36,565 bases of DNA from a virus, in the IMG/VR virus record IMGVR_UViG_3300037400_001528, one strand, 5' to 3'. The first letter of the stretch is position 1. Every line of letters begins with the position of its first letter. Below are positions 1,644 to 23,299 of the stretch, piece by piece. The notes beneath the pieces were generated by a model. That model was not told the DNA's origin. It searched no databases and worked only from the letters and a program-made list of their open reading frames with translations. A program made the translations under genes and the position numbers.

Positions 1644-1653
1644 AATGACTATA
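1644..1653 (+). promoter_or_regulatory. Late motif AATGACTATA, copy 1
   Basis: Perfect 10-mer followed by TAGGC. Lies in the 245-nt non-coding gap ahead of the head genes. Confidence 0.6.
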
Positions 1654-1668
1654 TAGGCAACAGACACC

Positions 1669-1714
1669 GACGGCGGGAACGCACCGCACCTCGCGCCCTG
1701 CCGTCTTTTTTTTT
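1669..1714 (+). terminator. Intrinsic terminator-like hairpin plus T9, between two late-motif copies
   Basis: gacggcggg (1669-1677) pairs with ccctgccgtc (1696-1705) with one bulge, followed by nine T (1706-1714). Confidence 0.6.
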
Positions 1715-1735
1715 GCATACAACGCCATTTTTATA

Positions 1736-1745
1736 AATGACTATG
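1736..1745 (+). promoter_or_regulatory. Late motif variant AATGACTATG, copy 2 (9 of 10)
   Basis: One mismatch at the last base, followed by TATATAGCGG. About 80 nt upstream of the scaffold gene. Confidence 0.5.
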
Positions 1746-1827
1746 TATATAGCGGCGAAACGGCGCGTAATCCGTTTCTATCCTATTGGCTGGCAAGCCG
1801 TAAAAAATGCGTAGGGAGATAAACAAA

Positions 1828-2370
1828 ATGAAGCGTGATTTTTTGGAAAGTTTGGGGCTGGAATCAGAAGTAATCGACAAGATTATGAAAGAGAACGGCA
1901 AGGACATTGAGGGCGTAAAGGCGAAGTTCGCCGACTATGACGACATCAAGAAACAGCTTGAAACCGCCAACACAACGCTGGAGAAGTTCAAAGACTACGA
2001 CCAAACGAAAGCCGATGTCGAGAAGTACAAGACAGAGCTTAAAAAATCGCAGGAAGAAAGCGCGGCAAAAATTGCCAACTTGGAGCGTTCGGGAAAAGTA
2101 AAAGATTACCTTTCGGGCAAAAAGTTTGTAAACAAAATCACACAGGACGCAATCACCGCGAAAATGTGCGAAGCATTGGGAGCAGACGAAAGCAAGGGAA
2201 AGAATCTTGATGATATTTTCGCCGAAATCACAAAAGACCAGTCAGACATCTTGAAAGACGATACAAAGCCGACCCCGCCAGTTGTTCCAGCAATGGGTGG
2301 AAAAGGCGGAAAGTCTGATGACGACGCACAGGCGCGGGCAGTAATGGGCTTGCCGCCTAAAAAAGATTAA
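1828..2370 (+). CDS. Scaffolding protein (GP20-like)
   Basis: MKRDFLESLGLESEVIDKIMKENGKDIE... is charged, helical and coiled-coil-like, and sits directly upstream of the capsid gene. AGGGAGA RBS before the ATG at 1828. Confidence 0.65.
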   Translation: MKRDFLESLGLESEVIDKIMKENGKDIEGVKAKFADYDDIKKQLETANTTLEKFKDYDQTKADVEKYKTELKKSQEESAAKIANLERSGKVKDYLSGKKFVNKITQDAITAKMCEALGADESKGKNLDDIFAEITKDQSDILKDDTKPTPPVVPAMGGKGGKSDDDAQARAVMGLPPKKD

Positions 2371-2387
2371 ACAGGAGATTTTAAACT

Positions 2388-3254
2388 ATGGCTAATCAGA
2401 TTGCAAAGTTTAAGAAGTATGTAGCACTTCTTGACGAAGTCTATCAGAACGAATCAAAGACCGCCGTACTTGAAAGCGACGCAACACTCGCACAGGCAGG
2501 CGCAAACGCAAACGAAATTGTTATCCCTAAGCTCGACATGGACGGCTTGGGAGATTATGACCGCAACAGTGGATATGTAAACGGAAATGTCACATTGACT
2601 AACGAAACCGTACAGTTTAACTATGACCGCGGTCGTAAGTTCAGTGTTGATAATATGGATAATGAGGAAACCGCAGGGCTTGCATTTGGAAAGCTCGCGT
2701 CCGAGTTTATTCGTACCAAGGTAACACCCGAGCAGGACGCTTTTAGATTTGCAAAATACGCAGAGCTTGCAGGCACTAAAGTCAGCGGTACACTTTCCGC
2801 TGGTACAGATGTACTCGCCGCATTGCAGGCAGCAACCGCCGCAATGGATAACGACGAAGTACCAAGCGAAAACCGTCACTTGTTTATTACACCTGCCCTG
2901 CTCATTGCGGCGCAGAATGTAGACACAAACAAGAGCCGCGATATTTTGGGCGCATTTGCAAGTATTACAAAAGTTCCGCAGGCTCGCTTTTATACCGCCA
3001 TTGCACTTAAAAACGGTAAGTCAAGCGGCGAAGAGGACGGCGGATTTGAAAAAGCAGAGGGCGGCAAAGATATTAACTTCTTGATTGCCGAAAAATCCGC
3101 AGTAATGCAGTACACAAAGCACAAGGTTAATAAGGCAATCCCGCCCGAAGATAACCCCGACGCTGACGCATGGATTTTTAACTTCCGAGCTTATGGTCTT
3201 TCGGACGTTTACGAAAACAAAACAGCAGGAATCTACCTGCACCACAAGGCATAA
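2388..3254 (+). CDS. Major capsid protein
   Basis: 288 aa immediately after the scaffold gene. GGAG RBS and no strong competing ORFs. Position and size are typical of a siphophage MCP. Confidence 0.7.
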   Translation: MANQIAKFKKYVALLDEVYQNESKTAVLESDATLAQAGANANEIVIPKLDMDGLGDYDRNSGYVNGNVTLTNETVQFNYDRGRKFSVDNMDNEETAGLAFGKLASEFIRTKVTPEQDAFRFAKYAELAGTKVSGTLSAGTDVLAALQAATAAMDNDEVPSENRHLFITPALLIAAQNVDTNKSRDILGAFASITKVPQARFYTAIALKNGKSSGEEDGGFEKAEGGKDINFLIAEKSAVMQYTKHKVNKAIPPEDNPDADAWIFNFRAYGLSDVYENKTAGIYLHHKA

Positions 3255-3265
3255 CGGGGGCACAC

Positions 3266-3490
3266 ATGAAAACAGTAGGATATTTGCCTAAAGCAACAAA
3301 GCCGAAAGACGACGCTGACAAGGGCACAAAAACAGCCAACGGAAACGGCGGCAAAGGTGGGAACAAACCAGCCAACACCGACGGAAAGAAAGCCGATGGT
3401 GTGGACGGCGGTGGAAACAAGCCGAAAGACGACGCTGACCCAGCAACAGGCGACACAGCCGACAGCGGGAAAGACAGCGGCGCAAAATAA
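3266..3490 (+). CDS. Low-complexity Gly/Lys/Asp-rich protein (possible head decoration or disordered protein)
   Basis: 74 aa. KPKDDAD occurs twice, encoded by a 21-nt exact DNA repeat (3299-3319 and 3419-3439). Confidence 0.5.
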   Translation: MKTVGYLPKATKPKDDADKGTKTANGNGGKGGNKPANTDGKKADGVDGGGNKPKDDADPATGDTADSGKDSGAK

Positions 3491-3502
3491 GGAGCGGGCG
3501 GA

Positions 3503-3892
3503 ATGTTCGAGAATGTAAACTACACATATTATAGCGATACTCTAGGGCGTTCCGCCGTTCCCAGCGAAGCGGATTTTAACAACTACGCCGACGACAACAA
3601 AATGTTTGTGAAACAGCTTGTAAACGACGGCATAGTAACGGAGCGGGAAGAAAACGGGCTTGATATTGCCGTTTGCAGAATGATTGAAATTGATTATCTG
3701 ACCGCGCAGGAAGCGAGCGGAGCGGCGGCAGAAAACGGCGGAAGCGTAGCAAGCGAAAGCATTAACGGCTATTCGTACAGTTACGACAAAACCGCCCAGC
3801 AGGAAGCCGTGAAGCTGAACGCAAAGAGTGCGGCGGCTAAGAAAATCGACATCATAAAACTGTATAACGACTATGACGCGGGGGTGCGCTAA
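3503..3892 (+). CDS. Head-tail connector or head completion protein (assigned by position)
   Basis: 129 aa, first of four small genes between the capsid and major tail genes. Confidence 0.4.
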   Translation: MFENVNYTYYSDTLGRSAVPSEADFNNYADDNKMFVKQLVNDGIVTEREENGLDIAVCRMIEIDYLTAQEASGAAAENGGSVASESINGYSYSYDKTAQQEAVKLNAKSAAAKKIDIIKLYNDYDAGVR

Positions 3893-4979: not shown

Positions 4980-4986
4980 AAAGACT

Positions 4987-5523
4987 ATGGGAGAACTCAT
5001 CAAAAAAACAAAAGTCGTGCCGTTCATCAACACAGGCACTAGCTCAACCCCGGTATGGACGCAGATAAAAAAGTCTACGAGCTTCACGCTTTCTATGAAT
5101 CCGCAGACAAAGACATTTGATTTTATTTCCTGCGAACACCCGCAAAATGAAATCGACAGTTACCAGCCGAGCCTTGCGCAGGAAATCACCATGTTCAAGG
5201 GAGAACCCGACTACGAAACAATCTTTGATATGCTTTACAACAGGGCAACAGGAGCGGACGCACACCGCGACGCAATGATTGTTTTTTACAAGGAATCTGG
5301 AAGCTACACACCCGATGGGGAAAGTGAAAGCATTACCGTATACAAGGCTTGGAAGATTGACGCACTCGTCACAATCAACCAGATGGACACGGTAAATGAA
5401 AACATCGGCTTTGATTTGGGCTTGAACGAAATCGAAAACGGTGCGGTCGAAATCGGCGAGGGCGGCGCACCTTCATTCATTGCCGGAGAATGGAACGGCA
5501 ACACATTTGCACCTGCCGCATGA
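4987..5523 (+). CDS. Major tail (tube) protein
   Basis: 178 aa with a GAGGAG RBS, followed by a Gp15-like chaperone gene. No sheath gene is present, so the tail is non-contractile. Confidence 0.6.
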   Translation: MGELIKKTKVVPFINTGTSSTPVWTQIKKSTSFTLSMNPQTKTFDFISCEHPQNEIDSYQPSLAQEITMFKGEPDYETIFDMLYNRATGADAHRDAMIVFYKESGSYTPDGESESITVYKAWKIDALVTINQMDTVNENIGFDLGLNEIENGAVEIGEGGAPSFIAGEWNGNTFAPAA

Positions 5524-6083
5524 TAAACTTAAAAAAAACAGGGTTGCCCGAAGCCGTAGAGGTTGACGGCGACCTTTACCCCGTATACACATCGTTCAAG
5601 TTTTGGATTAGGTTTTTTGAACTGCTGGCCAATAAAAACACGCCGCCCGATGATTTTGATTTTATGTATTCCACGGTCGCAAAACCGCAAAGCCGATTAA
5701 ACGGGGTTATTGCGCTCGTGCAATTCGGCAACCCGCCGCAGGAACTGCCGAGAACCCAAGGCGACGACCCGGAAAAAGCCGTTGATTATGCCGTAGACGC
5801 AGATTATATCTATGCGGCATTTATGGAGCAGTATGGAATAGACCTCATTAAAAGTGATATGCACTGGTACGAGTTCCAGGCACTTTTTAGGGGGCTGCAC
5901 GATACAAAGCTGAATGAAATCATCGGCTACAGGCTCTACGAGAACACCAGCGGGAAGCCAGATGCTTACACCCGTCAGATGGAAAAGCTGCGGAGCGCGT
6001 GGGAACTCCCGCAGGACAATGAAGAAGAGGACGAAGCCTTAAAGGAGTTTGAAGCAAAGCTGTACCCCGGCGGGGAAAACTGA
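5520..6083 (+). CDS. Tail assembly chaperone-like protein (Gp15-like)
   Basis: ATGA start overlaps the upstream stop. MINLKKTGLPEAVEVDGDLYPVYTSFKFWIRF... resembles the Gp15 family found after siphophage major tail genes. Confidence 0.45.
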   Translation: MINLKKTGLPEAVEVDGDLYPVYTSFKFWIRFFELLANKNTPPDDFDFMYSTVAKPQSRLNGVIALVQFGNPPQELPRTQGDDPEKAVDYAVDADYIYAAFMEQYGIDLIKSDMHWYEFQALFRGLHDTKLNEIIGYRLYENTSGKPDAYTRQMEKLRSAWELPQDNEEEDEALKEFEAKLYPGGEN

Positions 6084-6088
6084 CTATA
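6079..6088 (+). promoter_or_regulatory. Late motif variant ACTGACTATA (9 of 10), 5 nt upstream of the methyltransferase ATG
   Basis: TGACTATAA is shared with the copies at 9155 and 12894. Confidence 0.35.
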
Positions 6089-6093
6089 AAAGT

Positions 6094-7507
6094 ATGAGGA
6101 TAACCTGCGAAACAAAAGACACCCTGCCGCTATCCGCTTTGACCGAGTTTCAAGGCGGATTAAAGAAGCGCACGGCAGAAGATACAAAGAAAATCGAAAA
6201 GAGCATAAACGATTACGGCTTCGCGACGCCGTTTTTTGTTTGGAAGCATGACGGCATAAACAGCGTGCTAGACGGACACGGACGGTTACAGACATTAAAG
6301 GAAATGCAGCAGCGCGGCGAAGAAATCCCCGCCCTGCCCGTCGTATACATCGACTGCGCCAACGAAGCAGCCGCCAAAAATCTATTATTACGCATTTGCA
6401 GCACATACGGCGAAATGACAGCGCAGACCGTCCACGACTTCATTAAAGAGCTTGAAATCGCGTTCGACGATATACGCCTGCCATGCGGCACAATCGACCT
6501 CACCCCGCTAGATAAAAAGAAAATGGACGACACCAAAAAGACATTGCGCCAGCAATTTCTAGTGCCGCCCTTTTCCGTATTAGATACCCGTCAAGGCTAT
6601 TGGCAAGACCGCAAAAAGCAGTGGAAAAGCATAGGCATAAAATCCGAAGAGGGGCGCGACAATAAGATGTTGAAGCACCTCAAAGAAAATGCCAGCAAAG
6701 TGAACGGCGGCGCAGAAAACACATTGAGCGAAGTATCAATCTTCGACCCCGTATTATGCGAAACAATGTACACATGGTTTTGTATGCCACACGGCAGCGT
6801 ATTAGACCCATTCGCAGGGGGAAGCGTTCGGGGCATTGTAGCCAGCTATAAACACATGAAATACACGGGCTTTGACATTCGCCCCGAACAGGTAGAAGCC
6901 AACGAAAAACAAAAGGTGATCTGCGACGGCAACGAATACGCCCCGCAATGGATTTGTAAAGACAGCGCGAAAATGGGCGAAGTGCTGGGGGGGGGGCGAA
7001 ATGTACGATTTTGTATTTAGCTGCCCACCCTATGCAGATTTAGAAAAATACAGCGACATTGACGGCGACATCTCAAATATGGATTATCCTCAGTTTTTGG
7101 AAACATACCGCGCAATCATCAAGGCGGCCGTTTCACATCTGAAAGATAACCGCTTCGCCGTTTTTGTAGTCGGCGAGGTACGAAATAAAAAGACGGGCGA
7201 ATATTATAATTTTGTACCCGACACAATAAAGGCATTTGAGGACGCGGGCTTAAAATATTACAACGAAATCATATTGCTAAATGTAGCAGGCGGGAAAGCG
7301 TACACAGCAGGGCACGACGCAAAGAAAAGCCGCAAGATTGCAAAAGTACATCAGAATATACTCGCATTTGTAAAAGGCGACGCAGACGAAGCGGCGAAAA
7401 TCCACGAGCAAGTTTTAGTTTTCCTCAAAGGAAACAGCAAAGAAGCTAACGCCGATTTAGGCGACTTCCGCGCCGATAACTGCATATTGCCCGAAATGTT
7501 CGAGTAA
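6094..7507 (+). pseudogene. ParB-like N-terminal domain fused to an N6A/N4C DNA methyltransferase, split by a +1 frameshift in a G10 tract
   Basis: The upstream frame (6094-7020) has the ParB/Srx-like DGHGR motif and the AdoMet motif I DPFAGGS. The downstream frame (7001-7507) starts MYDFVFSCPPY (motif IV, PPY). Deleting one G gives the in-frame junction ...LGGGEMYDFVFSCPPY... Confidence 0.75.
6987..6996 (+). repeat. G10 homopolymer at the methyltransferase frameshift, 4 nt upstream of the ATG at 7001
   Basis: ctgGGGGGGGGGGcgaaATG read directly from the sequence. Confidence 0.9.
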
Positions 7508-7534
7508 ATCCGATTTTTCCGAAACGGTGGCACA

Positions 7535-7894: not shown

Positions 7895-9155
7895 ATCAAA
7901 CACGATATTTGCAAAGAAATATAATAAACTCTTCCGCTGGATAATGAAGCACGAATACACCGAGTACACGCTGACAGGCGGCCGCGGTTCGTGCAAATCC
8001 TCGTTTATATCGCTATGTATAATTATCTTGATTGTGATGTTTCCGCAATTCAACGCGCTAATTATCCGCAAGAACGCAAACACCCTGCGCACCAGCGTAT
8101 ACGAGCAAATCATTTGGGCGATTGAACGGCTCGGACTACGCAGCCGCTTTAAAATCCCGAAATCAGAAACAAGCGCGCTGCCGATTGTATACCGCCGCAA
8201 GAACGGTACAAAGCAATACATAATCTTTCGGGGCTGCGACAATCCCGAGAAAATCAAATCTATCAAGATTGCACAGGGCTATTTTGGTTTGATTTGGTTT
8301 GAAGAAAAAACCGAGTTCACACCCGCAGAGATACAGAATGTTAAAGTATCAGCCATGCGCGGCGGCAGTAAGTTCTATGTATTTGAATCATACAACCCGC
8401 CAAGCGCAAAACGCCATTGGTGCAACACCGACGCACGCACACCGAAAAAAGACCGCGTCGTTTTTCACACCACATATTTAGACATACCGCGCGAATGGTT
8501 GGGCGAAGCGATACTTAACGAAATCGAACACACGAAGAACACGAACGAGCGGGCATACAGAAATATATTTTTAGGGGAAGCGACAGGAACAGGGCTTAAC
8601 ATATTTGAGAATGTGGAACTGCGGGAAATCACGGACGAAGAAATAGCGGCGTTTGATTTTTTCTACAGCGGCATAGACTGGGGATATTACCCCGACCCCT
8701 TCGCCTTTTCCACATCATCATACAACGCGGCGACACAGACGCTTTTTATTTTTGATGAAATGTATCTGAACAAGCGCGGCAATTTTGAAGCGTTCCAAGA
8801 CTTAACAAAGCACATGGAAGCGCACGGCATGAGCATTGCAACGGACAGAATCACAGCCGACAGCGCAGAGCCTAAGAGCGTGGCTGACTTTAGGAGCTGG
8901 GGCGGAAATGTGCGCGGCGCAATTAAGGGAATAGGAAGCCGTGACGCGTCGTTTAAATGGCTACAGGGATTAAAACGGATTGTAATAGACCCCGCGCGAT
9001 GTCCGAGAATCGCCGACGAGTTCACGCTATACGAGCACGAAATAGACAAGCGTACAGGCGAGACTCTTAGCGGCTACCCCGACGGACAGCCCGACCACGG
9101 AATAGACACGGTGCGATACGCGCTGGAAACGGTTTGGAGACATGCGGGCGAGTAA
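7884..9155 (+). CDS. terL: Terminase large subunit (PBSX/Terminase_3-like)
   Basis: Walker A motif TGGRGSCKSS, an FEE Walker B-like segment, and a C-terminal nuclease region ending DHGIDTVRYAL. Confidence 0.85.
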   Translation: MRIKSNTIFAKKYNKLFRWIMKHEYTEYTLTGGRGSCKSSFISLCIIILIVMFPQFNALIIRKNANTLRTSVYEQIIWAIERLGLRSRFKIPKSETSALPIVYRRKNGTKQYIIFRGCDNPEKIKSIKIAQGYFGLIWFEEKTEFTPAEIQNVKVSAMRGGSKFYVFESYNPPSAKRHWCNTDARTPKKDRVVFHTTYLDIPREWLGEAILNEIEHTKNTNERAYRNIFLGEATGTGLNIFENVELREITDEEIAAFDFFYSGIDWGYYPDPFAFSTSSYNAATQTLFIFDEMYLNKRGNFEAFQDLTKHMEAHGMSIATDRITADSAEPKSVADFRSWGGNVRGAIKGIGSRDASFKWLQGLKRIVIDPARCPRIADEFTLYEHEIDKRTGETLSGYPDGQPDHGIDTVRYALETVWRHAGE

Positions 9156-9164
9156 ATGACTATA
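9155..9164 (+). promoter_or_regulatory. Late motif AATGACTATA, copy upstream of portal
   Basis: Perfect 10-mer. The 16 nt between it and the ATG at 9181 contain a GAGGG RBS. Confidence 0.6.
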
Positions 9165-10713: not shown

Positions 10714-12552
10714 ATGCTATCCCCGCGATATTTGGATGGCTTATCCTATGCACTAATTGAAATCTACTCACAGCTAGAAGCCGACATATTACAGGATATG
10801 GCGCGACGATTGGCACGAATCGGCAAAGTAACGGACGCTACAAAATGGCAAGCGCAGATGTTAGCCGAAGCGGGCGGGCTTAAAAAGAACATCGGGCGGA
10901 TTTTGGCAAAATATGACAAGGCAATAGTGAAGCAGATTAAAGACACATTCACGGACGCGCTGGAAACAAACACGAGGAACGACAACCGTATATTTAAGGC
11001 GGCGACAGGTCGCACCGTTTCCGCGCCGAACGCCCAGCAAATGCTTTCAACAATTCAAAAATGTCACAGCGATTTATCACGGCTCACGCTTACCACGGCG
11101 GCAACGACAGAAACACAGTTCGTGCAACAGGCTAACCGCGTATATATGCAAACACAGTCGGGCGCGTTCGATTATGATACCGCAATGAAAAACGCGGCGG
11201 ACGAACTAAGCAAGCGCGGAATAACTACGGTTCACTACGAGAACGGGCGACCCGTTACCCGCTCCATAGAATCAGCCGTCCGCATGAACATACTAACCAG
11301 CATAAACCAAACGGCGGCAAATCAGACTTTGAGCAACGCGGAAGAATTGGGCGTTGAGAAATTCGAGGTAACGGCGCACATCGGAGCGCGACCCGAACAT
11401 GAAGCGTGGCAGGGCAAAATCTACACGAAAGAAGAATTGTACAGCAAGTGCGGGCTTGGCGATGTTACGGGATTATGCGGCATAAACTGCCGCCATTCGT
11501 TCTACCCCTATTTTGAGGGAATGGAAGAGCATTACACGCAGGACGATTTAGACGATATGGCAAGCGAGAAAGTGAACTTCAACGGGCTGGAAATGACACG
11601 CTACGAGGGCGAGCAGAAACTGCGCGGAATCGAGCGGAACATAAGGCACTACAAGCGCGAAGCACTGACGCAGGAAGCGGCGGGCGTGGACAATACGAAA
11701 GCACGGCGGAAGCTCGGCGAATGGCAAGCGGCGGCACGTGATTTTACCAAGCAAACAGGCATAGCCCGCGACAGCGCGAGGGAGTATGTAGGAACGAGCG
11801 GAAAGCAGCCGACAGGATTAAAGCCACAAAAGAATATTGTAATTGAACCGAACAAAATAAAAACTGAATACAACAACATTCTTAAAAAGTATAACGGCGA
11901 CACAAACGCGGTTATAAAAAAGGCTACGAAATCGGAATTAAACACCGTAAAGGCATACAACCAAATTATAAATGACCAAAAGAGCGAGGATTATATAAAA
12001 TTATTCAACGCCCAAACGGTAGACACAAACGCATTAACTGAAACGCTACAAAAAACAACAAATGTAGAACAGCGAGACGCTTTCAGAGAATGGACGAGTT
12101 CAGCATATCGCCCTATAAATGCGTATTACAGGAACGGAACTCCGACAGACGCAGGATATAAAAAGACAGGGGAAATAATACATGATTACCTCAATAAGTG
12201 CGAATATCCCGAAATGTATGTAAGGCGCGGGGCTGATTATGAGTATGTGACAAAGATATTTGGCTCGGACGAATGGAAAAAGAATCCGCAATTATTGCTT
12301 CATTCGGAACTGACGGACAAGGGCTTTCTTGCCACAACGCCATCAAAAACGGGTGGCTTCAGCGGCGAAGTAATGTTATATTATAAAGTTCCCGATAAAT
12401 CAAAAGCTGCATATATCGCAAGTTTGTCATACTACGGACATGAGCAAGAAACTTTGTTTATTGACAATACAAAAGCAATAATCAAAGAAATCAGAGTGGA
12501 AACACTGGGCGGACATACCCGCTATACTTTATTTTTGGATATGGAGAAATAA
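10714..12552 (+). CDS. MuF / SPP1 gp7-like head morphogenesis protein fused to a C-terminal ADP-ribosyltransferase toxin domain
   Basis: MuF core: GARPEHEAWQGKIY...CGINCRHSFYPY. C-terminal R-S-E ART signature: SSAYRPINAYYRNG, MYVRRG (Arg), GFLATTPS (STS-like), GHEQETLF (ExE). Confidence 0.7.
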   Translation: MLSPRYLDGLSYALIEIYSQLEADILQDMARRLARIGKVTDATKWQAQMLAEAGGLKKNIGRILAKYDKAIVKQIKDTFTDALETNTRNDNRIFKAATGRTVSAPNAQQMLSTIQKCHSDLSRLTLTTAATTETQFVQQANRVYMQTQSGAFDYDTAMKNAADELSKRGITTVHYENGRPVTRSIESAVRMNILTSINQTAANQTLSNAEELGVEKFEVTAHIGARPEHEAWQGKIYTKEELYSKCGLGDVTGLCGINCRHSFYPYFEGMEEHYTQDDLDDMASEKVNFNGLEMTRYEGEQKLRGIERNIRHYKREALTQEAAGVDNTKARRKLGEWQAAARDFTKQTGIARDSAREYVGTSGKQPTGLKPQKNIVIEPNKIKTEYNNILKKYNGDTNAVIKKATKSELNTVKAYNQIINDQKSEDYIKLFNAQTVDTNALTETLQKTTNVEQRDAFREWTSSAYRPINAYYRNGTPTDAGYKKTGEIIHDYLNKCEYPEMYVRRGADYEYVTKIFGSDEWKKNPQLLLHSELTDKGFLATTPSKTGGFSGEVMLYYKVPDKSKAAYIASLSYYGHEQETLFIDNTKAIIKEIRVETLGGHTRYTLFLDMEK

Positions 12553-12746: not shown

Positions 12747-12893
12747 AAACACCCTACAGCCGAACGACAGCCAAACTTAAAACTACTTTCTAGCATAATT
12801 CGGAAAATTACCCACTGACACGAAAAAAACAGGCTTAAAACTTCATTTTTCAGAAACCAGCCCTGCACCATTGCGGGGCTTTCATTTTGCCCA

Positions 12894-12903
12894 AATGACT
12901 ATA
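12894..12903 (+). promoter_or_regulatory. Late motif AATGACTATA, copy upstream of the endolysin
   Basis: Perfect 10-mer, with 17 nt containing an AGAGGG RBS before the ATG at 12921. A hairpin plus T-rich tract (about 12860-12890) precedes it. Confidence 0.6.
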
Positions 12904-14255: not shown

Positions 14256-14521
14256 CGGTAACGGGCTGGATAATTGCGGGGCTTGCGCTTGCTCTGGTCG
14301 CTACATTGGGAATCGGAGCGGCCGCATTTTACATAATGCGCAAACGACATGAGCGGGAAGAAAACAAAATAAGACAAGAGGGGGCGGCAAATGCACAGCA
14401 TACGGCGGACATCATCACCAAAGCGGAGCAAATCAAGATTGACGCAGACACTGGCAATCATTCTGATGATTTGCACACTATGGCTGACCAGCTGCACAAC
14501 TACGCGCACGGCGGAAAGTAA
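14252..14521 (+). CDS. i-spanin-like protein (N-terminal TM helix plus a charged helical domain)
   Basis: MTVTGWIIAGLALALVATLGIGAAAFYIM is followed by a charged helical region. A lipoprotein ORF overlaps its 3' end in another frame. Confidence 0.4.
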   Translation: MTVTGWIIAGLALALVATLGIGAAAFYIMRKRHEREENKIRQEGAANAQHTADIITKAEQIKIDADTGNHSDDLHTMADQLHNYAHGGK

Positions 14522-14705
14522 GCCCGCCCCGCAATACTACCCGCCCGACCCTTACGACAAGAACGGCGTTTTAGTATGGGCGGAAATAAAGGACGGGGAA
14601 ACGTTCACGGCGACCGAGGACGGTTTGTTTCTGCCGTTTTGGTGGTGGAAAAAAGTTTATGATTACATCGTGAACACACAGGCGGCGCAGAAAATCCGCG
14701 AATGA
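14391..14705 (+). CDS. o-spanin-like lipoprotein overlapping the i-spanin-like gene
   Basis: Signal peptide with lipobox (LAIILMICTLWLTS-C) and a Pro-rich mature part (KPAPQYYPPDPYD). GAGGGGG RBS upstream. Overlaps 14252-14521 by 131 nt out of frame, as in the Rz/Rz1 arrangement. Confidence 0.4.
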   Translation: MHSIRRTSSPKRSKSRLTQTLAIILMICTLWLTSCTTTRTAESKPAPQYYPPDPYDKNGVLVWAEIKDGETFTATEDGLFLPFWWWKKVYDYIVNTQAAQKIRE

Positions 14706-14710
14706 CTATA
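14701..14710 (+). promoter_or_regulatory. Late motif AATGACTATA, copy upstream of the small membrane protein gene
   Basis: Perfect 10-mer followed by TAGGCGGAGG (RBS), then the ATG at 14728. Confidence 0.6.
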
Positions 14711-14925: not shown

Positions 14926-14960
14926 AAGGCGGCTATGATTAGGTGTTAGCCGCCTTTTTT
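14926..14960 (+). terminator. Rho-independent terminator ending the lysis cassette
   Basis: aaggcggcta (14926-14935) pairs perfectly with tagccgcctt (14947-14956), followed by a T run. Confidence 0.75.
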
Positions 14961-14976: not shown

Positions 14977-15141
14977 ATGAGAATAATATCTGACGAATTA
15001 CACGCAAGGATTATTAAAGAACTTGCAAAAAATGAGTCCGTGGCAGTTTTTCAGCAACTTCTTTTAGCACCAAAGACAGACGAAAAGGACGAAGAAGCCT
15101 CACGGGAAAGCGAAGAGCCGCGGCAAGGAGTTGAAAAGTGA
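14977..15141 (+). CDS. Small acidic hypothetical protein (54 aa)
   Basis: Hand-translated: MRIISDELHARIIKELAKNESVAVFQQLLLAPKTDEKDEEASRESEEPRQGVEK. A TATAAT box lies just upstream, and the stop overlaps the next GTG start (GTGA). Confidence 0.4.
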   Translation: MRIISDELHARIIKELAKNESVAVFQQLLLAPKTDEKDEEASRESEEPRQGVEK

Positions 15142-15948: not shown

Positions 15949-16929
15949 ATGGGAACGGTAAACTTTGGACAAGTCGCGGCTCTAATTCAGAGCGTGAGCG
16001 CAGAAGCATTGGCAGAAGGAGCAACCCCAACCGTAAGAAATGCAGGAACAAAAGCAAACGCGCAGTTAGTTTTTGGTATTCCCGTAGCTACGGCATTGAG
16101 CCACAATATTCCGCGTTTAGTGCCTAAAGATATTACATCATACATCACCGACGGCACATTTTGGAAGCGTTTAGCTGGCACAAACGGCTTCGCGCTTTTT
16201 GAAGATATTTATGTCGGCGATTATTTCCAAATGTCCCGCGCAATTTCCGCATACGAGCGCACAGGGGAGTATCAAACTACAGGCTCGCAGTATGTAACCA
16301 TTGCGGGGCTTGATACCATGATGAACAACGGCGACCAAGACAGCGGAATTACATATCATCATGCCGTAATGGTTGCAGGGCAAGGGTTCGGCGGCACACA
16401 ACACTTCGGACGGAGCCGCATGAACGCGACAAACGACACAACGGGCGGCTATAAAGCAAGCGAAATGAATACGCTTGTTTTGGGCGATGTAGTAAGCGCG
16501 GGAAGCACAGCAGCCGACGCGACAATTAACCAGCAGCTCTACGCAGAGTTTGGAGTTCATTTGAAAACCACCCGCGAGCTGGTAACAAACGCAATCAACG
16601 CCACAGGCTACAACAGATTTGGAAGCGCGACAGGTTGTGCAAGTAACTGGGAATGGATAAGCGCACAGGCTATTTTAATGAGCGAGGTCGAAGCCTACGG
16701 CTCTATAGCTTGGAGCAGTTCGGGCTATGACACAGGAAACGCAAACCGACAGTTGCCGCTTTTTGCATTTAGCAAACAGGCACAAAATAACCGTTCGGCT
16801 TATTGGTGGCTAAAAGATGTTGCGTCCGCCGCTGATTTCTGCGGTGCCGACGCCGATGGCGGTAGCAGCTGCCACTACGCGGGCCATGCGAGATATTACG
16901 TTCGTCCCCGCTTCATCTTAGGGGCATAG
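15949..16929 (+). CDS. DGR target protein 1 (fibre/receptor-binding candidate with a C-terminal CLec-type variable region)
   Basis: 326 aa. The C-terminus YWWLKDVASAADFCGADADGGSSCHYAGHARYYVRPRF is encoded by VR1, which matches the TR except at adenines. Confidence 0.85.
   Translation: MGTVNFGQVAALIQSVSAEALAEGATPTVRNAGTKANAQLVFGIPVATALSHNIPRLVPKDITSYITDGTFWKRLAGTNGFALFEDIYVGDYFQMSRAISAYERTGEYQTTGSQYVTIAGLDTMMNNGDQDSGITYHHAVMVAGQGFGGTQHFGRSRMNATNDTTGGYKASEMNTLVLGDVVSAGSTAADATINQQLYAEFGVHLKTTRELVTNAINATGYNRFGSATGCASNWEWISAQAILMSEVEAYGSIAWSSSGYDTGNANRQLPLFAFSKQAQNNRSAYWWLKDVASAADFCGADADGGSSCHYAGHARYYVRPRFILGA
16818..16913 (+). repeat. DGR variable repeat VR1
   Basis: Ungapped 96-nt alignment to TR 17561-17656. 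There are 20 mismatches, 19 of them at TR adenines (13 A->G, 4 A->C, 2 A->T) and one C->A. Confidence 0.9.
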
Positions 16930-16933: not shown

Positions 16934-16976
16934 GCAATCCGCTAATCTCCGCCCCGTGTGGGCGGGATAGCGGAAA

Positions 16977-16986
16977 AATGACTATA
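16977..16986 (+). promoter_or_regulatory. Late motif AATGACTATA, copy upstream of the Avd-TR-RT unit
   Basis: Perfect 10-mer, 18 nt before the ATG at 17005. Confidence 0.6.
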
Positions 16987-17004
16987 TGATAAAAGGTTTA
17001 TAAA

Positions 17005-17553: not shown

Positions 17554-17560
17554 GATTTGT

Positions 17561-17656
17561 TATTGCGTCCGCCGCTAATTTCTGCAATGCCAACAACAAT
17601 GGCAATAGCAACTACAACAACGCGAGCAATGCGAACAATTACGTTCGTCCCCGATT
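17561..17656 (+). repeat. DGR template repeat (TR)
   Basis: Contains 30 adenines. In the target frame it carries 12 AAY codons (AAT TTC TGC AAT GCC AAC AAC AAT GGC AAT AGC AAC TAC AAC AAC GCG AGC AAT GCG AAC AAT TAC). Non-coding position between avd and RT. Confidence 0.9.
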
Positions 17657-17809
17657 TGAATGGCGCACAGCGTATTTTTAGACAAGTGCGTTTAACGAAG
17701 GAAATCTTATCCTGCGCCGTAACAAGCCGAACAAAACGGGCGACGCGGTTTGATAAGTCAATACCGCTACACGCGCCCGTTATTTTTTTTATATTTAGGA
17801 TTTTTGAAA
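17657..17809 (+). ncRNA. TR-RT spacer (candidate structured Sp part of the DGR RNA)
   Basis: ggcgca (17662-17667) can pair with tgcgcc (17713-17718). An imperfect hairpin at 17736-17780 (acgggcg/cgcccgt and gcggt/accgc) is followed by a T8 run (17783-17790). Confidence 0.45.
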
Positions 17810-18889
17810 ATGGGTACATTGTACGAAAAGCTGCTAGATCTGAACAACCTACACGAAGCCTACATAAAAAGCAAAAGCGGCGTGGAGTGGAAAGAATCAG
17901 TACAAAAATACGGAATCTACGAGCTGGCACACATTCAAGAATTGAGCGAAGCCCTTAAAAATCATACCTACAGGCAAAAGCCTTTTTATGAGTTCGACAT
18001 CAACGAACGCGGAAAGCAGCGGCATATTAAAAGCCTGCACATCAGCGACCGCGTTTTACAGCGCGCATTATGCGACCAAATATTAACGCCCGAATTGCAG
18101 AAATATTTAATTTATGACAACGGCGCGAGCGTAAAAGATAAAGGGATAGAGTTTTCCCGCCGACGGCTAAAAACACATTTAACACGCTATTATAAAAAGT
18201 ACGGGCGCGACGGCTATATATTGCTGATTGATTTTTCAAAATATTTTGACAATATCCGCCACGACAAACTATTAGAAATGATTGCCGAAAAAATCGACGA
18301 CGCGGAAGTTATAGAACTATTGCGGCATTTAATCACAACGTTCGACACGGCAGAAAACGCGGGGCGTTCGGTTGGAATCGGCAGCCAAATATCACAGATT
18401 GCAGGGATTTTCTACCCGACCCGCATTGATAATTATTGCAAGATAGTCCGCAGCGTAAAATATTACGGCCGCTATATGGACGATACATATATCATTCATA
18501 ACGACAAACAATATTTGCGCGAGCTATTGCACGACATACAGCAGATTTGCGACGAATTAGGAATCATCATAACCAAAAAGAAAACGCAGATTGTAAAACT
18601 TTCAAACGGTTTCACATTTCTAAAAATGCGCTATTTAATCACGGACACAGGAAAGATTATTGTAATTCCATGCAAAGCCAGCATAACACGCGAACGGCGC
18701 AAGCTGCTGAAATTAAAAAGATTTGTATTAGCGGGGCGTATAACACCCGCAGAAATCCGCGAGCAATACAAAAGCTGGCGCGGAAATCTAATCAAATACA
18801 ACGCATATAAAAGCGTTCGCTCCACGGACGCATTATATAAATCACTATTCGGGAGTAATTATGGTCAAAAAGAAAAAGGAATTAACTGA
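17810..18889 (+). CDS. DGR reverse transcriptase
   Basis: Motifs ISDRVLQRAL, LLIDFSKYFDNIRH, VGIGSQISQIAGIFY (DGR-type I/LGxxxSQ), YGRYMDDTYII (YxDD) and FTFLKMRY. I prefer the ATG at 17810 (MGTLYEKL) over the track start at 17750. Confidence 0.9.
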   Translation: MGTLYEKLLDLNNLHEAYIKSKSGVEWKESVQKYGIYELAHIQELSEALKNHTYRQKPFYEFDINERGKQRHIKSLHISDRVLQRALCDQILTPELQKYLIYDNGASVKDKGIEFSRRRLKTHLTRYYKKYGRDGYILLIDFSKYFDNIRHDKLLEMIAEKIDDAEVIELLRHLITTFDTAENAGRSVGIGSQISQIAGIFYPTRIDNYCKIVRSVKYYGRYMDDTYIIHNDKQYLRELLHDIQQICDELGIIITKKKTQIVKLSNGFTFLKMRYLITDTGKIIVIPCKASITRERRKLLKLKRFVLAGRITPAEIREQYKSWRGNLIKYNAYKSVRSTDALYKSLFGSNYGQKEKGIN

Positions 18890-19261: not shown

Positions 19262-19268
19262 ACCACAT

Positions 19269-19296
19269 GCCCCGTAATTATGCGGGGCTTTTTTTT
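19269..19296 (+). terminator. Rho-independent terminator ending the fibre/DGR operon
   Basis: gccccgta-atta-tgcggggc (8-bp stem with one G-U pair) followed by T8. Confidence 0.8.
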
Positions 19297-19306
19297 ATTT
19301 TCCTTA

Positions 19307-19316
19307 AATGACTATA
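19307..19316 (+). promoter_or_regulatory. Late motif AATGACTATA, copy 5 nt upstream of the tape measure ATG
   Basis: Perfect 10-mer immediately after the terminator. Confidence 0.6.
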
Positions 19317-19321
19317 TAAGC

Positions 19322-22057
19322 ATGGCAAACGACGGTGAAGTAAGCATAGGCACAAAGGTAGACACTACCGGATTGGACAAAGGTCTGCGCACGGTGCAGA
19401 ATAAAGTTAACAACACATCAAAAGACCTCGGCAAAGGCTCCAAAGCCGTAAACGGATTAAAGACAGCGTTCAATGAAACTGGCGGCGCGGCGGCTGGATT
19501 CGCAAACAAAATGCAGGGCGTGGCAACCAGCGGCGGCGCGGTAGGTGCGGGAATCACGGCGGCGGTATTGGCGGCAAAAAAGTATATTGAAATACTCAAA
19601 GAAGCAACCGAAGCCTACAAGGTGCAGGAAAAAGCAGAAATGGCATTGGAGAAAGCTGCGGAAAACAATCCGTATCTAAGCCAGATAAGCGTCCAGCGTT
19701 TGAAGGATTACGCCAGCGAATTGCAGAAAGTCAGCAACTACGGCGACGAGGTAACGATAGACATAATGGCACAACTGGCCAGCACGGGGCGCACGGAATC
19801 CGAGATTATGAAGATTATGGGCGCGGCGGCGGACTATGCGGCGGCGAAACATATTGATTTGAAAACGGCGGCAGAATCGCTTAACGCCACATACAGCGGC
19901 ATGGCTGGCACTATGGGGCGGCAGATTGCCGACATCAAAGAGTTGACCGACGAACAGCTTAAAAACGGCGATGCCATCGACCTGATTGCAGAAAAATACA
20001 AAGGCTTCGCGGAGCGGTCGCAGGACAGCAGCGAACAGGCTAAAAACGCTTTCGGGGACTTCATGGAATCCGTCGGAGAGTTCGCAAACCCCGTCTTTGA
20101 TTCACTGAACAAAATGGCAAGGGGGTTCTGGGAAAGCATGACCTCCGTAATAAACAAGGTCAAAGAAGGGCTAAAGACCGCCCGCGAAACATGGGTAATC
20201 GGCGGCGATTACAGGTGGTCGCAAGAATATATGGAAGGGTTCGAAAAATCCTTGAAAAAAGTTGACTCGTCAAAACTAACTTTGTACATGGAAGATAAAG
20301 CCATGATACTGGACGACGACAGCATACACCACCTGTCCGTTTATCTGGAGACAAAGAAAGACATAAATGAGGTCGAATTAAAATACTTGGACATTTTGGA
20401 GCGGGAAACCCAGCACCGTAAAAACAAAGCCGCAGCCAATGCCGAATATGCCGAATATGCAGATAAATGGAGAAAGGCCTCAAAAGAAGAACTGGAAGCA
20501 CGGCTCAACGAATACGATACGCTCAAATACTCGGTGCAAGAACGAATGGCCATAAATGATTTGTTGCAAACCGCAACGTCAAAAATAACAACACCAAAGA
20601 TAAATTCATCATCAAAAACCTATAAGAAAACGGCCAATGATTATGCAGTCGAAAGCAACAAGGCCCTGCAAAACAATCTGTATGCGCTGGAAGTCGAAGC
20701 AAAGGTAAAAGGTGAAACTGTAAGCGCACAGGACAGGTATAACGTCTACCTCCAGTCATATATTGACCTGCTCACCAAAACCGAGGGACTCATCAAAGAG
20801 GGCTACCCCGTGGAACAGAAGCGGCTTGAACAGCTAGAGGAAGCAAAGAAAGCCCTAGAGGAAGCCGCCGCCGCAGAAAAGAAAGCCGCAGACGAAAAAG
20901 CCGCCGCAGAAAAGAAACTCGCCGCTATTATCGAATTGACACGCGCGGCGACCGACGCAATCAACGGCATAAAGCAGGAGCTGACACCAGCAGAAGAAAT
21001 GCAGAAGCAGATAGACGCTCTGGAAGAACTTAAAAACAAAATCAAAGAAACCAGCGACGAGGAAATAGCGGCGGCACAAGAGGGGCAGGAAAAGCAAATG
21101 TCAAAAGCCGAACTTGTAGCCGGACTGCAGGAAGCCGAAAAAGCCCTTGTAAAGGAGAAAGTGGACGCAATCGCCGCAAAAGAACAAAGCTGGTGGGACA
21201 AATACGCAAGCTCCCAAAAAGAACTGCTCGAAATGAAACAGGCCGTAAATGACAGCGAAGTTCTAAGCGAAGCAGAAAAATACGAAAAACTCAAAGAACT
21301 GGATGAAGCTTACAAACAAAGCAAGGCGGCGCAATATGCGGAACTTTTGGCACAGATACAGGACTACACAGGCCAAGCCGTGGACATTATGAGCCAGGCC
21401 TGTGACCTCATGCTGGAAACACAGAAGAACGAAGCGACTGCGGAACAGGCGGAGCTTGAACTGAAATACCGCAAGGGGGAAATTTCAGAAGAAGAGTACC
21501 AAGAGAAGCTGACGGAAAGCAAAAAGCAAGCTGCAAGGGAGCAGTATAAAATACAGATGGTACAATGGGCGGCAAGTTTGTTGCAGGCAACGGCGAACAT
21601 TGCGCAGGGCGTAACACAGGCGATTGCACAAGGCGGCGTTGCGGGACTTATTACGGGAGCCTTGGTTTCAGCGGCGGGCGGGGTTCAGATTGCGTCCATC
21701 ATTGCCAGCAAGCCCACCCCGCCGAATTTCAGCACGGGCGGAATAATCGGCGGCTCATCGTACCACGGGGACAACATAGCGGCGAACCTCAACAGCCGCG
21801 AAATGGTGATGAACCAATCCCAGCAAAAGAGACTGTGGGAGTTCATCAACGGCGGAAGCAATGGACAGGGCGGCGGAGCGAACATCGTAATAAACAACAG
21901 CGCGGCTAATCTTGTACGGGCGCAGCCGCAAATCACAAAAGACAAAATCGAATTATTGATTGACGCGCGAGTAAATGACAGCCTTAAAAACGGACGGTAT
22001 AACACAAGCCTGACTATGGCACAGCAGGGCATGAGCGGGGATTTTTACGGAATCTAA
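19322..22057 (+). CDS. Tail tape measure protein
   Basis: 911 aa, largely coiled-coil and Ala/Glu/Lys-rich, with a Gly-rich hydrophobic segment near the C-terminus. The track start at 19280 lies inside the terminator hairpin, so I use the ATG at 19322 (MANDGEV). Confidence 0.85.
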   Translation: MANDGEVSIGTKVDTTGLDKGLRTVQNKVNNTSKDLGKGSKAVNGLKTAFNETGGAAAGFANKMQGVATSGGAVGAGITAAVLAAKKYIEILKEATEAYKVQEKAEMALEKAAENNPYLSQISVQRLKDYASELQKVSNYGDEVTIDIMAQLASTGRTESEIMKIMGAAADYAAAKHIDLKTAAESLNATYSGMAGTMGRQIADIKELTDEQLKNGDAIDLIAEKYKGFAERSQDSSEQAKNAFGDFMESVGEFANPVFDSLNKMARGFWESMTSVINKVKEGLKTARETWVIGGDYRWSQEYMEGFEKSLKKVDSSKLTLYMEDKAMILDDDSIHHLSVYLETKKDINEVELKYLDILERETQHRKNKAAANAEYAEYADKWRKASKEELEARLNEYDTLKYSVQERMAINDLLQTATSKITTPKINSSSKTYKKTANDYAVESNKALQNNLYALEVEAKVKGETVSAQDRYNVYLQSYIDLLTKTEGLIKEGYPVEQKRLEQLEEAKKALEEAAAAEKKAADEKAAAEKKLAAIIELTRAATDAINGIKQELTPAEEMQKQIDALEELKNKIKETSDEEIAAAQEGQEKQMSKAELVAGLQEAEKALVKEKVDAIAAKEQSWWDKYASSQKELLEMKQAVNDSEVLSEAEKYEKLKELDEAYKQSKAAQYAELLAQIQDYTGQAVDIMSQACDLMLETQKNEATAEQAELELKYRKGEISEEEYQEKLTESKKQAAREQYKIQMVQWAASLLQATANIAQGVTQAIAQGGVAGLITGALVSAAGGVQIASIIASKPTPPNFSTGGIIGGSSYHGDNIAANLNSREMVMNQSQQKRLWEFINGGSNGQGGGANIVINNSAANLVRAQPQITKDKIELLIDARVNDSLKNGRYNTSLTMAQQGMSGDFYGI

Positions 22058-22084
22058 AATAAAGCGAAGCGTAAAGGGGGAAAC

Positions 22085-22450
22085 ATGGCTATAAATTGGA
22101 GCGCGTACTGCAACGCGGATTTTTACGGACAGGACGGCGGATATAAAGAGAACACCGAAGAAGTGGAGTTCAAGAGCGGGCGCACAATCAAATACTTAAA
22201 AAACAGCGCGGCAAAGAAAACACACGCCCTCAACCTTTCATTAAAAGACAAGGGGACGCTCAAAACCGACGGCAAAACGGAGTTTGAGCATTTCCTCTGG
22301 TGGTACGAAAACACAGCCAAAAGCGGCACAATCCCGTGCAACTTGACCGACATAATAACGGGCAGCGGTACAAAACAGTATTTAATTAAAGTTGAGGGCT
22401 GGACAGGCCAGCGGAACAAAGAAGTGAGCCTAGAACTCGAAGAGGTTTAA
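22085..22450 (+). CDS. Minor tail protein (position of lambda gpM)
   Basis: 121 aa, first gene after the tape measure gene. Confidence 0.45.
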   Translation: MAINWSAYCNADFYGQDGGYKENTEEVEFKSGRTIKYLKNSAAKKTHALNLSLKDKGTLKTDGKTEFEHFLWWYENTAKSGTIPCNLTDIITGSGTKQYLIKVEGWTGQRNKEVSLELEEV

Positions 22451-22451
22451 A

Positions 22452-22886
22452 ATGAACATCTACAGACAACTGGCAGAGGGCGGCGGCTATAATCTCCCCT
22501 TTTTGGTGCATTTATCCAGCCCCGACAACGCCACGCATATTTATTTAATCAACGACAATCAAGATATGCCATTCGGCGGCCATACATACGCGGCAAGTAA
22601 TTTTACATACACGCCGAACGAAAACGGCGACAGCACTCTAGACATTGAGCTTGTCGGACATGACGACATCATCGACATTTTGGAAGAAAACGAACATTTC
22701 AACATTGAGGTAATCGGGATTTTTAATGGCGAAGAGGTTGAGGCAATCGAACAGCATAAACATAAATACGGTGAAGTTACATGGAGTGCCGTAAAATCGG
22801 AAATGAAGCTAAATAAAGATGACCGTGGGGAAATGACTTTTCCCGCATTGATTTTCAATTCATACAACAACAAAGGGAATAACTAA
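22452..22886 (+). CDS. Minor tail protein (position of lambda gpL)
   Basis: 144 aa, second gene after the tape measure gene. Confidence 0.4.
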   Translation: MNIYRQLAEGGGYNLPFLVHLSSPDNATHIYLINDNQDMPFGGHTYAASNFTYTPNENGDSTLDIELVGHDDIIDILEENEHFNIEVIGIFNGEEVEAIEQHKHKYGEVTWSAVKSEMKLNKDDRGEMTFPALIFNSYNNKGNN

Positions 22887-22888
22887 AA

Positions 22889-23299
22889 ATGAAATATGAC
22901 GACTTGCTAAATATCCCGTTTAAGAAGTTCGGGCGCGACAAAAGTGGCTATGACTGCTACGGCGCAGTAATGGAGTGCTGCAAGCGGGCGGGAACACCGC
23001 TAAAAGATTTATACGGCGACATTGTAGACCTCCCCGCCGATAGCGTAAATGACTATATAGGCGGGGGATTGAATGTAAAAGAAATAGACGCTCCGAAAGT
23101 GGGTGCGCTTGTATATTCAATCTACAAAGGCAATGTTCACGTAGGCTATATCGTAGAACGCGGGAAAGTTTTACACGCCACAATAGACAAGGGAATAAAA
23201 ATATCTCCATTGGCGGCATTGCACCCCATAGCATATTATGAGGTTGTAAATGAAAGCGACGCTATACAAGGAACTGTCAAACAAAAAGACCCCGATTGA
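22889..23299 (+). CDS. NlpC/P60-family tail tip protein (gpK-like)
   Basis: Catalytic Cys context GYDCYGAVMEC and His context GNVHVGYIVERGKVLHAT. Its position matches lambda gpK. Confidence 0.6.
   Translation: MKYDDLLNIPFKKFGRDKSGYDCYGAVMECCKRAGTPLKDLYGDIVDLPADSVNDYIGGGLNVKEIDAPKVGALVYSIYKGNVHVGYIVERGKVLHATIDKGIKISPLAALHPIAYYEVVNESDAIQGTVKQKDPD
23048..23057 (+). promoter_or_regulatory. Late motif AATGACTATA, intragenic copy about 190 nt upstream of the J-like gene
   Basis: Perfect 10-mer followed by TAGGCGG, the same 17-nt string as the copy at 14701. Lies inside CDS 22889-23299. Confidence 0.45.

Follow-up and report, generated by a model that had tools for sequence, protein, structure and literature searches.

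The question raised by the uncultivated spirochete phage in IMG/VR virus record IMGVR_UViG_3300037400_001528 is what a 10-mer, AATGACTATA (hereafter the box), does in front of so many of its late genes. An earlier reading made from the sequence alone (hereafter the sequence-only reading) had proposed a phage-specific late promoter. We followed up this proposal in the whole 36,565-nt stretch of DNA (hereafter the window) and in related loci, which are denoted by L numbers. Our analysis indicates that AAATGACTATA, the conserved form of the box, is probably the core late promoter of this temperate Treponema siphovirus, a lone -10-region box working without a -35 element.

An oriented box recurs across the late region

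Exact copies of AATGACTATA lie at 1644, 9155, 12894, 14701, 16977, 19307 and 23048, and one-mismatch copies at 1736 (AATGACTATG) and 6079 (ACTGACTATA), with all nine on the + strand and spanning 1644–23057; we refer to the boxes at 1644 and 1736 as P1 and P2. The sequence-only reading had listed the same seven exact and two one-mismatch copies, and our scan reproduced every position and strand. Only one further match with at most one mismatch was found in the window, AATGTCTATA on the - strand at 24893, which is at chance level. These 10 matches compare with a mean of 1.6 in dinucleotide shuffles of the window, none of 100 shuffles reaching 10. The 8-mer core TGACTATA occurs eight times, is confined to box sites and is absent from the - strand. 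A weight matrix trained on relatives alone, with the window excluded, gave the nine box sites scores of 16–28 bits and all other positions on both strands 6 bits or less; in a shuffled window about two positions per strand scored above 6 bits.

The motif is restricted to the late region, as had been claimed, with no copy in the early and lysogeny genes at 23.1–36.5 kb and 1–1.6 kb, and the distances given from box to start codon were all correct: 16 nt for portal, 17 for amidase, 17 for the small membrane protein, 18 for avd, and 5 each for the tape measure and methyltransferase genes. Box 1736 lies 61 nt before the scaffold ATG at 1807. Upstream of the early operon we found a sigma70-like promoter, TTGACT-17-TATATT at 29392–29420, and no box. 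The use of a different, box-free early promoter fits a temporal switch.

The box is conserved with the genes it precedes

Across 77 related loci, TGACTATA is present in 229 copies in gene sense and four in antisense. The sequence-only reading had called for a search of related phages, and this search found the box kept down to 61% TerL identity. In all 22 of the 22 IMG/VR loci whose TerL is 61–95% identical, (A/G/T)ATGACTATA stands directly 5' of the portal ATG, and it is kept there despite a TerL–portal spacer of differing length, the box lying 3 to 197 nt (for example 19, 112 or 197) beyond the end of the TerL match. Genes also retain their box although their upstream neighbor changes. The methyltransferase box, for instance, lies 3' of coding sequence in the window but directly 3' of a terminator in L002 (8883), with another copy in L094 at 15677, and in relatives this gene is preceded by a perfect box, 5 nt and the same ATGAGGATAACC start. 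The tape measure gene of relatives follows a terminator, the box, 5 nt and ATGGCAAACGA (L021 10735, L039 9149, L040 9468), the arrangement at the small membrane protein gene recurs in L001 (16995) and L020 (15230), and the avd box has its equivalent in L021 at 8408. Relatives hold perfect copies at the places equivalent to both one-mismatch sites, the P2 equivalent having a perfect TATA, so that by this comparison 1736 and 6079 are genuine sites.

The box at 23048 lies inside a tail gene, where it encodes Asn-Asp-Tyr-Ile. These codons showed no synonymous variants in 10 distinct sequences, whereas 58 of 74 comparison codons (78%) with an invariant amino acid vary synonymously, indicating selection on the DNA sequence itself.

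At one further gene, starting at 14977 (MRIISDEL...), a terminator at 14941–14955 is followed by a perfect TATAAT, aagc and the ATG. The same gene in relatives is preceded by AATGACTATA, 5 nt and ATG (L017 8475, L019 11828, L020 10946, L021 6529). In the window, a sigma70-like -10 element may have replaced the late box at this gene.

Spacing and base composition point to a probable start site just past the box

When approximately 120 distinct contexts were aligned, only the stretch from 4 nt 5' to about 10 nt 3' of the 10-mer, or -17 to +5 relative to the predicted start, carried information content. The extended consensus derived from more than 100 distinct contexts is AAATGACTATA-W-A-R-G-Y-R, close to the one proposed earlier. 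TTGACA-likeness 5' of 125 box contexts equaled that of random positions, giving no sign of a -35 element, and a sigma70 consensus scan of the window listed a single box, 16977, as a weak 9/12 match. We rejected a canonical sigma70 -35/-10 promoter because a TTGACA-like hexamer 16–18 bp 5' of a TATAAT-like hexamer is absent at the boxes. An extended -10 promoter (TGnTATAAT) was rejected because the TG of the box is 2 nt from TATA and, given the predicted +1, falls at -13/-12 rather than -15/-14.

The contexts fall into two classes. In the leaderless class, comprising 30 distinct contexts, exactly 5 nt separate the box from the ATG and a Shine-Dalgarno sequence is absent; the methyltransferase and tape measure genes are its members in the window. 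In the Shine-Dalgarno class, to which most of the other contexts belong, a Shine-Dalgarno-like GAGG or GGAGG begins 5–6 nt after the box and the distance onward to the ATG varies. The distribution of box-to-ATG gaps has sharp peaks at 5 and 16–17 nt. Among non-leaderless contexts, the fifth base after the box (predicted -1) is a pyrimidine in 87% and the sixth (predicted +1) a purine in 90%, and 39 of 86 have a Shine-Dalgarno-like 4-mer whose first base is predicted +1 or +2. Judged from these patterns, the most likely start is the conserved purine six bases past the final A of the box. Numbered from this +1, TGACTATA occupies -13 to -6, with an A at -11 and a T at -7.

Several boxes follow terminator-like hairpins, and a conserved hairpin separates the first two

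A stringent hairpin with a T-run is present no more than 68 nt upstream in 18% of box contexts and in 1.3% of random same-strand positions, a 14-fold difference. In the window, we located a hairpin and T-run directly 5' of 1644, 1736, 12894 and 19307, in agreement with the earlier observation that several copies come right after terminators; box 16977 is preceded by a hairpin without a T-run.

At least 13 distinct relatives share the tandem P1–terminator–P2 layout. The hairpin between P1 and P2 (-20.4 kcal/mol, z = -2.7) is kept in 10 relatives, and 6 of 10 pairs carry compensatory changes, in an alignment that includes L014, L059, L061, L062, L065, L073, L076, L079 and L091. Its loop carries GCACC throughout, except for ACACC in one relative, and the remaining RNA sequence is unconserved. 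The predicted P1 RNA might act as a small RNA of the late phase, as an attenuator or as a decoy.

A proposed map of late transcription

Acting as promoters, the nine boxes would split the late genes among short transcription units, namely a short RNA; the head genes; methyltransferase and terminase; portal; lysis; the small membrane protein and the target of a diversity-generating retroelement (DGR); avd, template repeat (TR) and reverse transcriptase (RT); tape measure; and tail fiber. Several of these units would end in an intrinsic terminator, with the next box immediately after it. The methyltransferase and tape measure messages would be leaderless, and the others would start at or 1–2 nt from the Shine-Dalgarno sequence. 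Given the avd box in the window and its counterparts in relatives, the DGR may reasonably be expected to be expressed late, as the sequence-only reading had proposed.

From the lack of a -35 element, the non-consensus hexamer and the need for lysis genes to be silent in the lysogen, we infer a positive factor made by the phage. Initiation would then need a product of the early operon, of which a 149-aa protein encoded at 19–468 is the best candidate, and this protein might either confer specificity in the manner of a minimal, sigma-like subunit or appropriate the host holoenzyme. The anatomy of the box, its conservation and its co-occurrence with the gene for this protein are direct observations. 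All of the comparative tests, namely conservation, absence of a -35, spacing, the pyrimidine/purine pair, terminators and absence from the early operon, agree with the late promoter first suggested by the sequence-only reading, which stays a prediction.

A family of small helical proteins includes the best candidate factor

The gene order in L059, L062 and L076 is a DnaC-like gene, the 149-aa gene, the tandem boxes and the scaffold gene, with no other open reading frame (ORF) between them, and the 149-aa gene is the sole early gene consistently kept beside the first box. Position and co-occurrence thus make the 149-aa protein the best candidate for the factor. The sequence-only reading had named this protein as the obvious regulator; its position and its presence in box-bearing relatives favor that choice, whereas the accompanying label 'sigma-region-2-like' found no support in sequence. 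An ORF at 733–918, with weak zinc-ribbon hints, was rejected as the factor because it is missing where box-bearing relatives have the first box immediately beside the 149-aa gene.

The 149-aa family comprises 311 clusters at 50% identity (E ≤ 0.001), and its members are carried by temperate siphoviruses whose hosts are Treponema and other bacteria of the gut and rumen. Neither the protein nor 82 homologues matched Pfam, PHROG or NCBIfam, and Pfam sigma models, including Sigma70_r2 (PF04542), gave no match to the protein at E ≤ 5 or to the 82 members at E ≤ 1. Aligning the family profile by hhalign with a verified alignment of the sigma2 region of RpoE (sigmaE) gave a probability of 1.7%, and with a single sigmaE sequence 0.9%. 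Searching PDB sequences with each of the two family profiles returned only chance-level RFC matches, and the longer homologues carry no C-terminal sigma4 or helix-turn-helix domain.

We also compared an AlphaFold2 model of the protein, with a predicted local distance difference test score of 92, to known structures using Foldseek. The top PDB matches were the sigma factor ShbA (probability 0.96, template modeling (TM) score by target 0.53) and region 2 of sigmaE (TM 0.58), followed by SigB, sigma32, T4 gp55 (7d7c_F) and Q-lambda, at TM scores of approximately 0.4–0.58; a viral library added several annotated sigma factors, and a T4-like sigma-like factor was also among the matches. All of these matches had E ≥ 0.09, and for this modeled fold 'sigma-like' is a weak lead rather than a finding.

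In some relatives with more distant homologues, the box itself has changed. Directly 3' of the gene in L083 (homologue 37% identical) lies CAACTATA, followed by 5 nt and ATG; L095 (46%) has GGACTATA, 5 nt and ATG, as well as AACTATA, 5 nt and GAGG; and L089 (29–30%) has a related box, TTGACTATTAC, three times with a Shine-Dalgarno sequence after each, and in this locus matches exist for only four proteins of the window, the 149-aa protein among them. These variants keep the ACTAT core and the geometry, with drift in the flanks.

Repeated k-mers in L084–L088, L096 and L097 were considered as co-varying boxes and rejected, since they belong to tandem iterons or coding repeats. The iteron arrays in these phages with distant homologues lie at L088 8409–8650, L096 1557–1620 and L097 684–860. 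That of L088 is within or beside the DUF6291 gene, a location in keeping with a role for DUF6291 as the replication initiator. A look-alike of the box, TATGACTATA, encodes the conserved Q-Y-D-Y peptide of the 149-aa family at L028 4923 and L098 1460; its presence inside the gene of the candidate regulator is probably a coincidence.

A possible but doubtful extension of the late-promoter reading is that the 149-aa proteins are a new and widespread family of minimal sigma factors with a sigma2-like domain alone, analogous to gp55, each by itself directing host core RNA polymerase (RNAP) to the 11-bp, -35-less box. If so, the AUG or the Shine-Dalgarno sequence would be the exact point at which transcription starts, and late modules would each carry a portable 16-bp promoter.

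Alternative explanations for the box

The sequence-only reading had also raised the possibility that the box acts in RNA, as could happen if an endoribonuclease cut about 5 nt downstream of it or if it enhanced translation within long polycistronic late transcripts. Its fixed distance to the ATG or Shine-Dalgarno sequence and its single orientation would suit such a signal, and the copies at 6079, 9155 and 14701 have no upstream terminator and overlap the previous stop codon, so read-through would transcribe them. We consider this explanation improbable and less likely than a promoter, since many copies lie just 10–25 nt past strong intrinsic terminators, where little RNA arrives. The box is also not complementary to the anti-Shine-Dalgarno sequence, copy 1644 precedes no gene, spacing in the Shine-Dalgarno class is fixed to the Shine-Dalgarno sequence rather than to the ATG, and the pyrimidine/purine pair at the predicted end, with the box at -13 to -6, resembles a start site. 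Multiple asymmetric copies in one orientation relative to transcription, mostly at gene boundaries, would likewise be expected of a double-stranded DNA site for a repressor or roadblock, like the stoperators by which mycobacteriophage L5 silences lytic genes in the prophage. Such a repressor must act in the immunity region and at the early promoter, however, and no site above 6 bits lies outside 1644–23057, these two places included; the 5-nt spacing to the ATG, the pyrimidine/purine signature and the placement after terminators would also be left unexplained, and a role as stoperator is very improbable. Three other roles for the box, as the target of the methyltransferase, as a pac or cos site and as a nut-like site of antitermination, were rejected in view of its copy number, strict orientation, association with gene starts and position after terminators.

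A further alternative is a variant of the promoter reading itself, in which the box is a promoter and its specificity does not come from the 149-aa protein as a sigma factor. Host sigma70 might read GACTAT as a weak -10, with a phage appropriator or anti-sigma4 protein (compare gp39 of P23-45) favoring promoters without a -35, or the 149-aa protein might be a Q-like antiterminator loaded at the box. The A and T that are invariant at -11 and -7 under the predicted start fit these versions, and the -35-less middle and late promoters of Thermus phage P23-45 are indeed read by host holoenzyme bound by gp39 (PMC3950348). On the other hand, ten or eleven invariant positions are far beyond what sigma70 requires, and a TG at -13/-12 is not in the extended -10 position. 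For the Q-like version, Q-lambda chains recur among the Foldseek matches and P1 has a promoter-proximal terminator, as in lambda PR'-tR', but these matches span just 47–69 residues at E > 1, and the repeated terminator-plus-box junctions speak against processive antitermination. Taken jointly, the two versions appear unlikely.

Several points weigh against the late-promoter reading with the 149-aa protein as its factor. P1 alone would yield a terminated RNA of about 56 nt, which a simple model does not explain. No sequence relationship between the candidate and sigma factors was detected, and no structural match to it falls below the E of 0.09 given above. The L099 homologue is 36% identical, yet TGACTATA is retained there, so change in the box does not simply track protein identity, and distant homologues in L084–L088, L096 and L097 had no recognizable box in the limited DNA examined. 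Counts over relatives are not independent, the sequences being kin. The start site, the late timing, and both the dependence on a factor and its identity are things that we infer.

Genome organization and other features

The window begins and ends with an exact 127-bp direct repeat (1–127 and 36439–36565), indicating a circularly closed, complete genome of 36,438 bp; with this closure, ORF 19–468 continues the early operon, the replication genes being its immediate upstream neighbors. Homologues of the 149-aa protein were found on contigs of metagenome-assembled genomes of Treponema and Spirochaetia, two of them 119 kb and 791 kb in length, which identifies the phage as a temperate Treponema siphovirus; it occurs in rumen and human samples. 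A megablast search with 25 kb of the window found no match, and so no close relative, among INPHARED phages, and an Rfam scan of the whole window returned zero families. Coordinates are collected in Table 1.

Table 1. Boxes, terminators and genes in the window.
Feature	Position	Strand	Remarks
149-aa protein gene	19–468	+	All-helical family; candidate specificity factor for the box
Box P1, AATGACTATA	1644–1653	+	27.6 bits; predicted +1 A1659; 3' of hairpin 1619–1632
Terminator-like hairpin (1669–1705) and nine T (1706–1714)	1669–1714	+	Between P1 and P2; GCACC in loop region
Box P2, AATGACTATG	1736–1745	+	18.0 bits; mismatch at predicted -6; predicted +1 A1751; leader of ~56 nt to scaffold ATG
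Scaffold protein gene	ATG 1807	+	
Putative major capsid gene	2388		
Methyltransferase box, ACTGACTATA	6079–6088	+	21.6 bits; TGA is stop of ORF 5490–6083; 5 nt, then ATG 6094
DNA methyltransferase	6094–7507		Two overlapping ORFs, 6094–7020 and 7001–7507
TerL gene	7884		
Portal box	9155–9164	+	Overlaps TerL stop codon; predicted +1 G9170, first base of Shine-Dalgarno GAGGG
Portal gene	ATG 9181		
Minor capsid and ADP-ribosyltransferase fusion	10714–12552		612 aa
Intrinsic terminator closing portal/minor-capsid unit	12859–12880	+	9-bp stem, 6 GC pairs, T-rich tail; 14 nt before box 12894
Amidase/endolysin box	12894–12903	+	23.3 bits; after terminator 12859–12880; predicted +1 A12909 (AGAGGG)
Amidase/endolysin gene	ATG 12921		
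Small membrane protein box	14701–14710	+	22.3 bits; TGA is stop of ORF 14391–14705; predicted +1 G14716 (GGAGG)
Small membrane protein gene	ATG 14728		
DGR target gene	15949–16929		ORF; variable repeat (VR) 16820–16913 at its 3' end
avd box	16977–16986	+	16.3 bits; between DGR target gene and avd; predicted +1 A16992
avd	ATG 17005		
TR	17563–17656		Between avd and RT
RT gene	17750–18889		
Intrinsic terminator closing DGR unit	19269–19288	+	8-bp stem, 6 GC pairs, then T8; 19 nt before box 19307
Tape measure box	19307–19316	+	26.8 bits; after terminator 19269–19288; 5 nt, then ATG 19322
Putative tape measure gene	ATG 19322		911-aa product
Tail ORF	22889–23299		
Box within tail ORF 22889–23299	23048–23057	+	26.0 bits; codons N-D-Y-I; predicted +1 G23063, ~190 nt 5' of gpJ-like gene start
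gpJ-like tail gene	start 23250		1232-aa product
Integrase	27748–29067	-	rve/DDE-type
Early operon	from 29641		ERF, DUF6291, DnaC-like gene; crosses junction into ORF 19–468 and four small ORFs

The repeat pair of the DGR was confirmed, VR and TR being 80% identical across 94 nt with mismatches at TR adenines. The 612-aa protein matches Phage_min_cap2 over residues 2–345 and has a C-terminal ADP-ribosyltransferase exoenzyme domain at 441–605, and it may be an ejected effector. The methyltransferase ORF at 7001–7507 matches positions 474–603 of PHROG 498; the split of this gene could come from a frameshift or a programmed shift, or the two ORFs could encode separate subunits. The integrase is a transposase-like rve/DDE enzyme, neither a tyrosine nor a serine recombinase, with weak Pfam matches (E = 3e-4). 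A tandem array at 29206–29279, in the interval from the integrase side to the early promoter, consists of 3.8 copies of an 18-nt unit, TGTATATGATTATGTATT, and TGTAT-rich repeats resembling it are also present in L065, L075 and L078. The early promoter is followed by an untranslated leader of approximately 215 nt that ends in a terminator-like hairpin and T-run (29601–29625) directly before the first early ATG at 29641; this hairpin may be an attenuator or may mark an antitermination-controlled entry to the early operon. The four small ORFs 3' of the 149-aa gene yielded nothing useful in Pfam, PHROG or NCBIfam.

Relation to known systems

Phage-specific late promoters are a known kind of element, exemplified by the gp55 boxes of T4, the extended -10 promoters of P23-45 and the late promoters of SPO1. 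By sequence, the box and its candidate factor belong to none of these families: the box differs, and no homology was established for the candidate factor. A literature search for the 10-mer returned nothing beyond unrelated primer and sequence matches, and neither the motif nor the 149-aa family left a trace in the literature and libraries searched.

The closest parallel in layout is T4, whose late box, TATAAATA, lies at -13 to -6 (PMC1524935). Shared with T4 are a single 8-bp box at these positions, given the predicted start, without a -35 element; many copies before late genes; and a candidate factor that is small and helical. The two boxes differ (TGACTATA here, TATAAATA in T4, where gp55 works with gp33 and gp45), and the match between gp55 and the 149-aa protein is insignificant (E = 5.5, TM 0.36–0.39), homologues of gp33 and of the sliding clamp not having been searched for. 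The present phage, moreover, is a 36-kb temperate spirochete siphovirus, and T4 is not known for messages that are systematically leaderless or begin at the Shine-Dalgarno sequence. P23-45, in which sigmaA holoenzyme acts with gp39 and gp76 at extended -10 promoters, likewise has phage promoters that lack a -35 and depend on the -10 region, and there small phage proteins retune RNAP; in contrast, the TG here is two positions nearer the hexamer than in an extended -10, and the hexamer is non-consensus. Many P23-45 middle and late transcripts are reportedly leaderless, a result attributed to Berdygulova et al. 2011.

In Gram-positive temperate phages with RinA, ArpU or LtrC, and in lambda with Q, a small regulator gene ends the early operon just 5' of the packaging or late genes. 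The 149-aa gene has the same placement, whereas those systems have one late promoter and long operons and the present phage has nine boxes. NCBIfam contains RinA and ArpU family models, and the 149-aa protein is unmatched in that library. L5 stoperators are asymmetric, oriented sites that silence lytic genes in the prophage and are also found in the early region, overlapping the early promoter. Together with the start-associated sequences of Cluster K phages, they share with the box a short asymmetric motif in one orientation near gene starts of a temperate phage; unlike L5 stoperators, the box is absent from the early region and early promoter, and unlike the Cluster K sequences, which include the ribosome-binding site, it lies 5' of that site, often right after a terminator.

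Implications

Our analysis provides a testable transcription map for uncultivated spirochete phages, with nine late units and starts predicted at single-base resolution, and it predicts a separate late transcription unit for the DGR (avd-TR-RT). The box may also serve as a marker when late genes and gene starts are annotated in metagenomic phages related to this one, and this short, portable element with its predicted leaderless messages is a possible compact expression signal for Treponema genetics. The analysis points to an uncharacterized protein family as the switch. If the 149-aa protein is a sigma2-only factor, the T4 gp55 paradigm would be extended to temperate siphoviruses.

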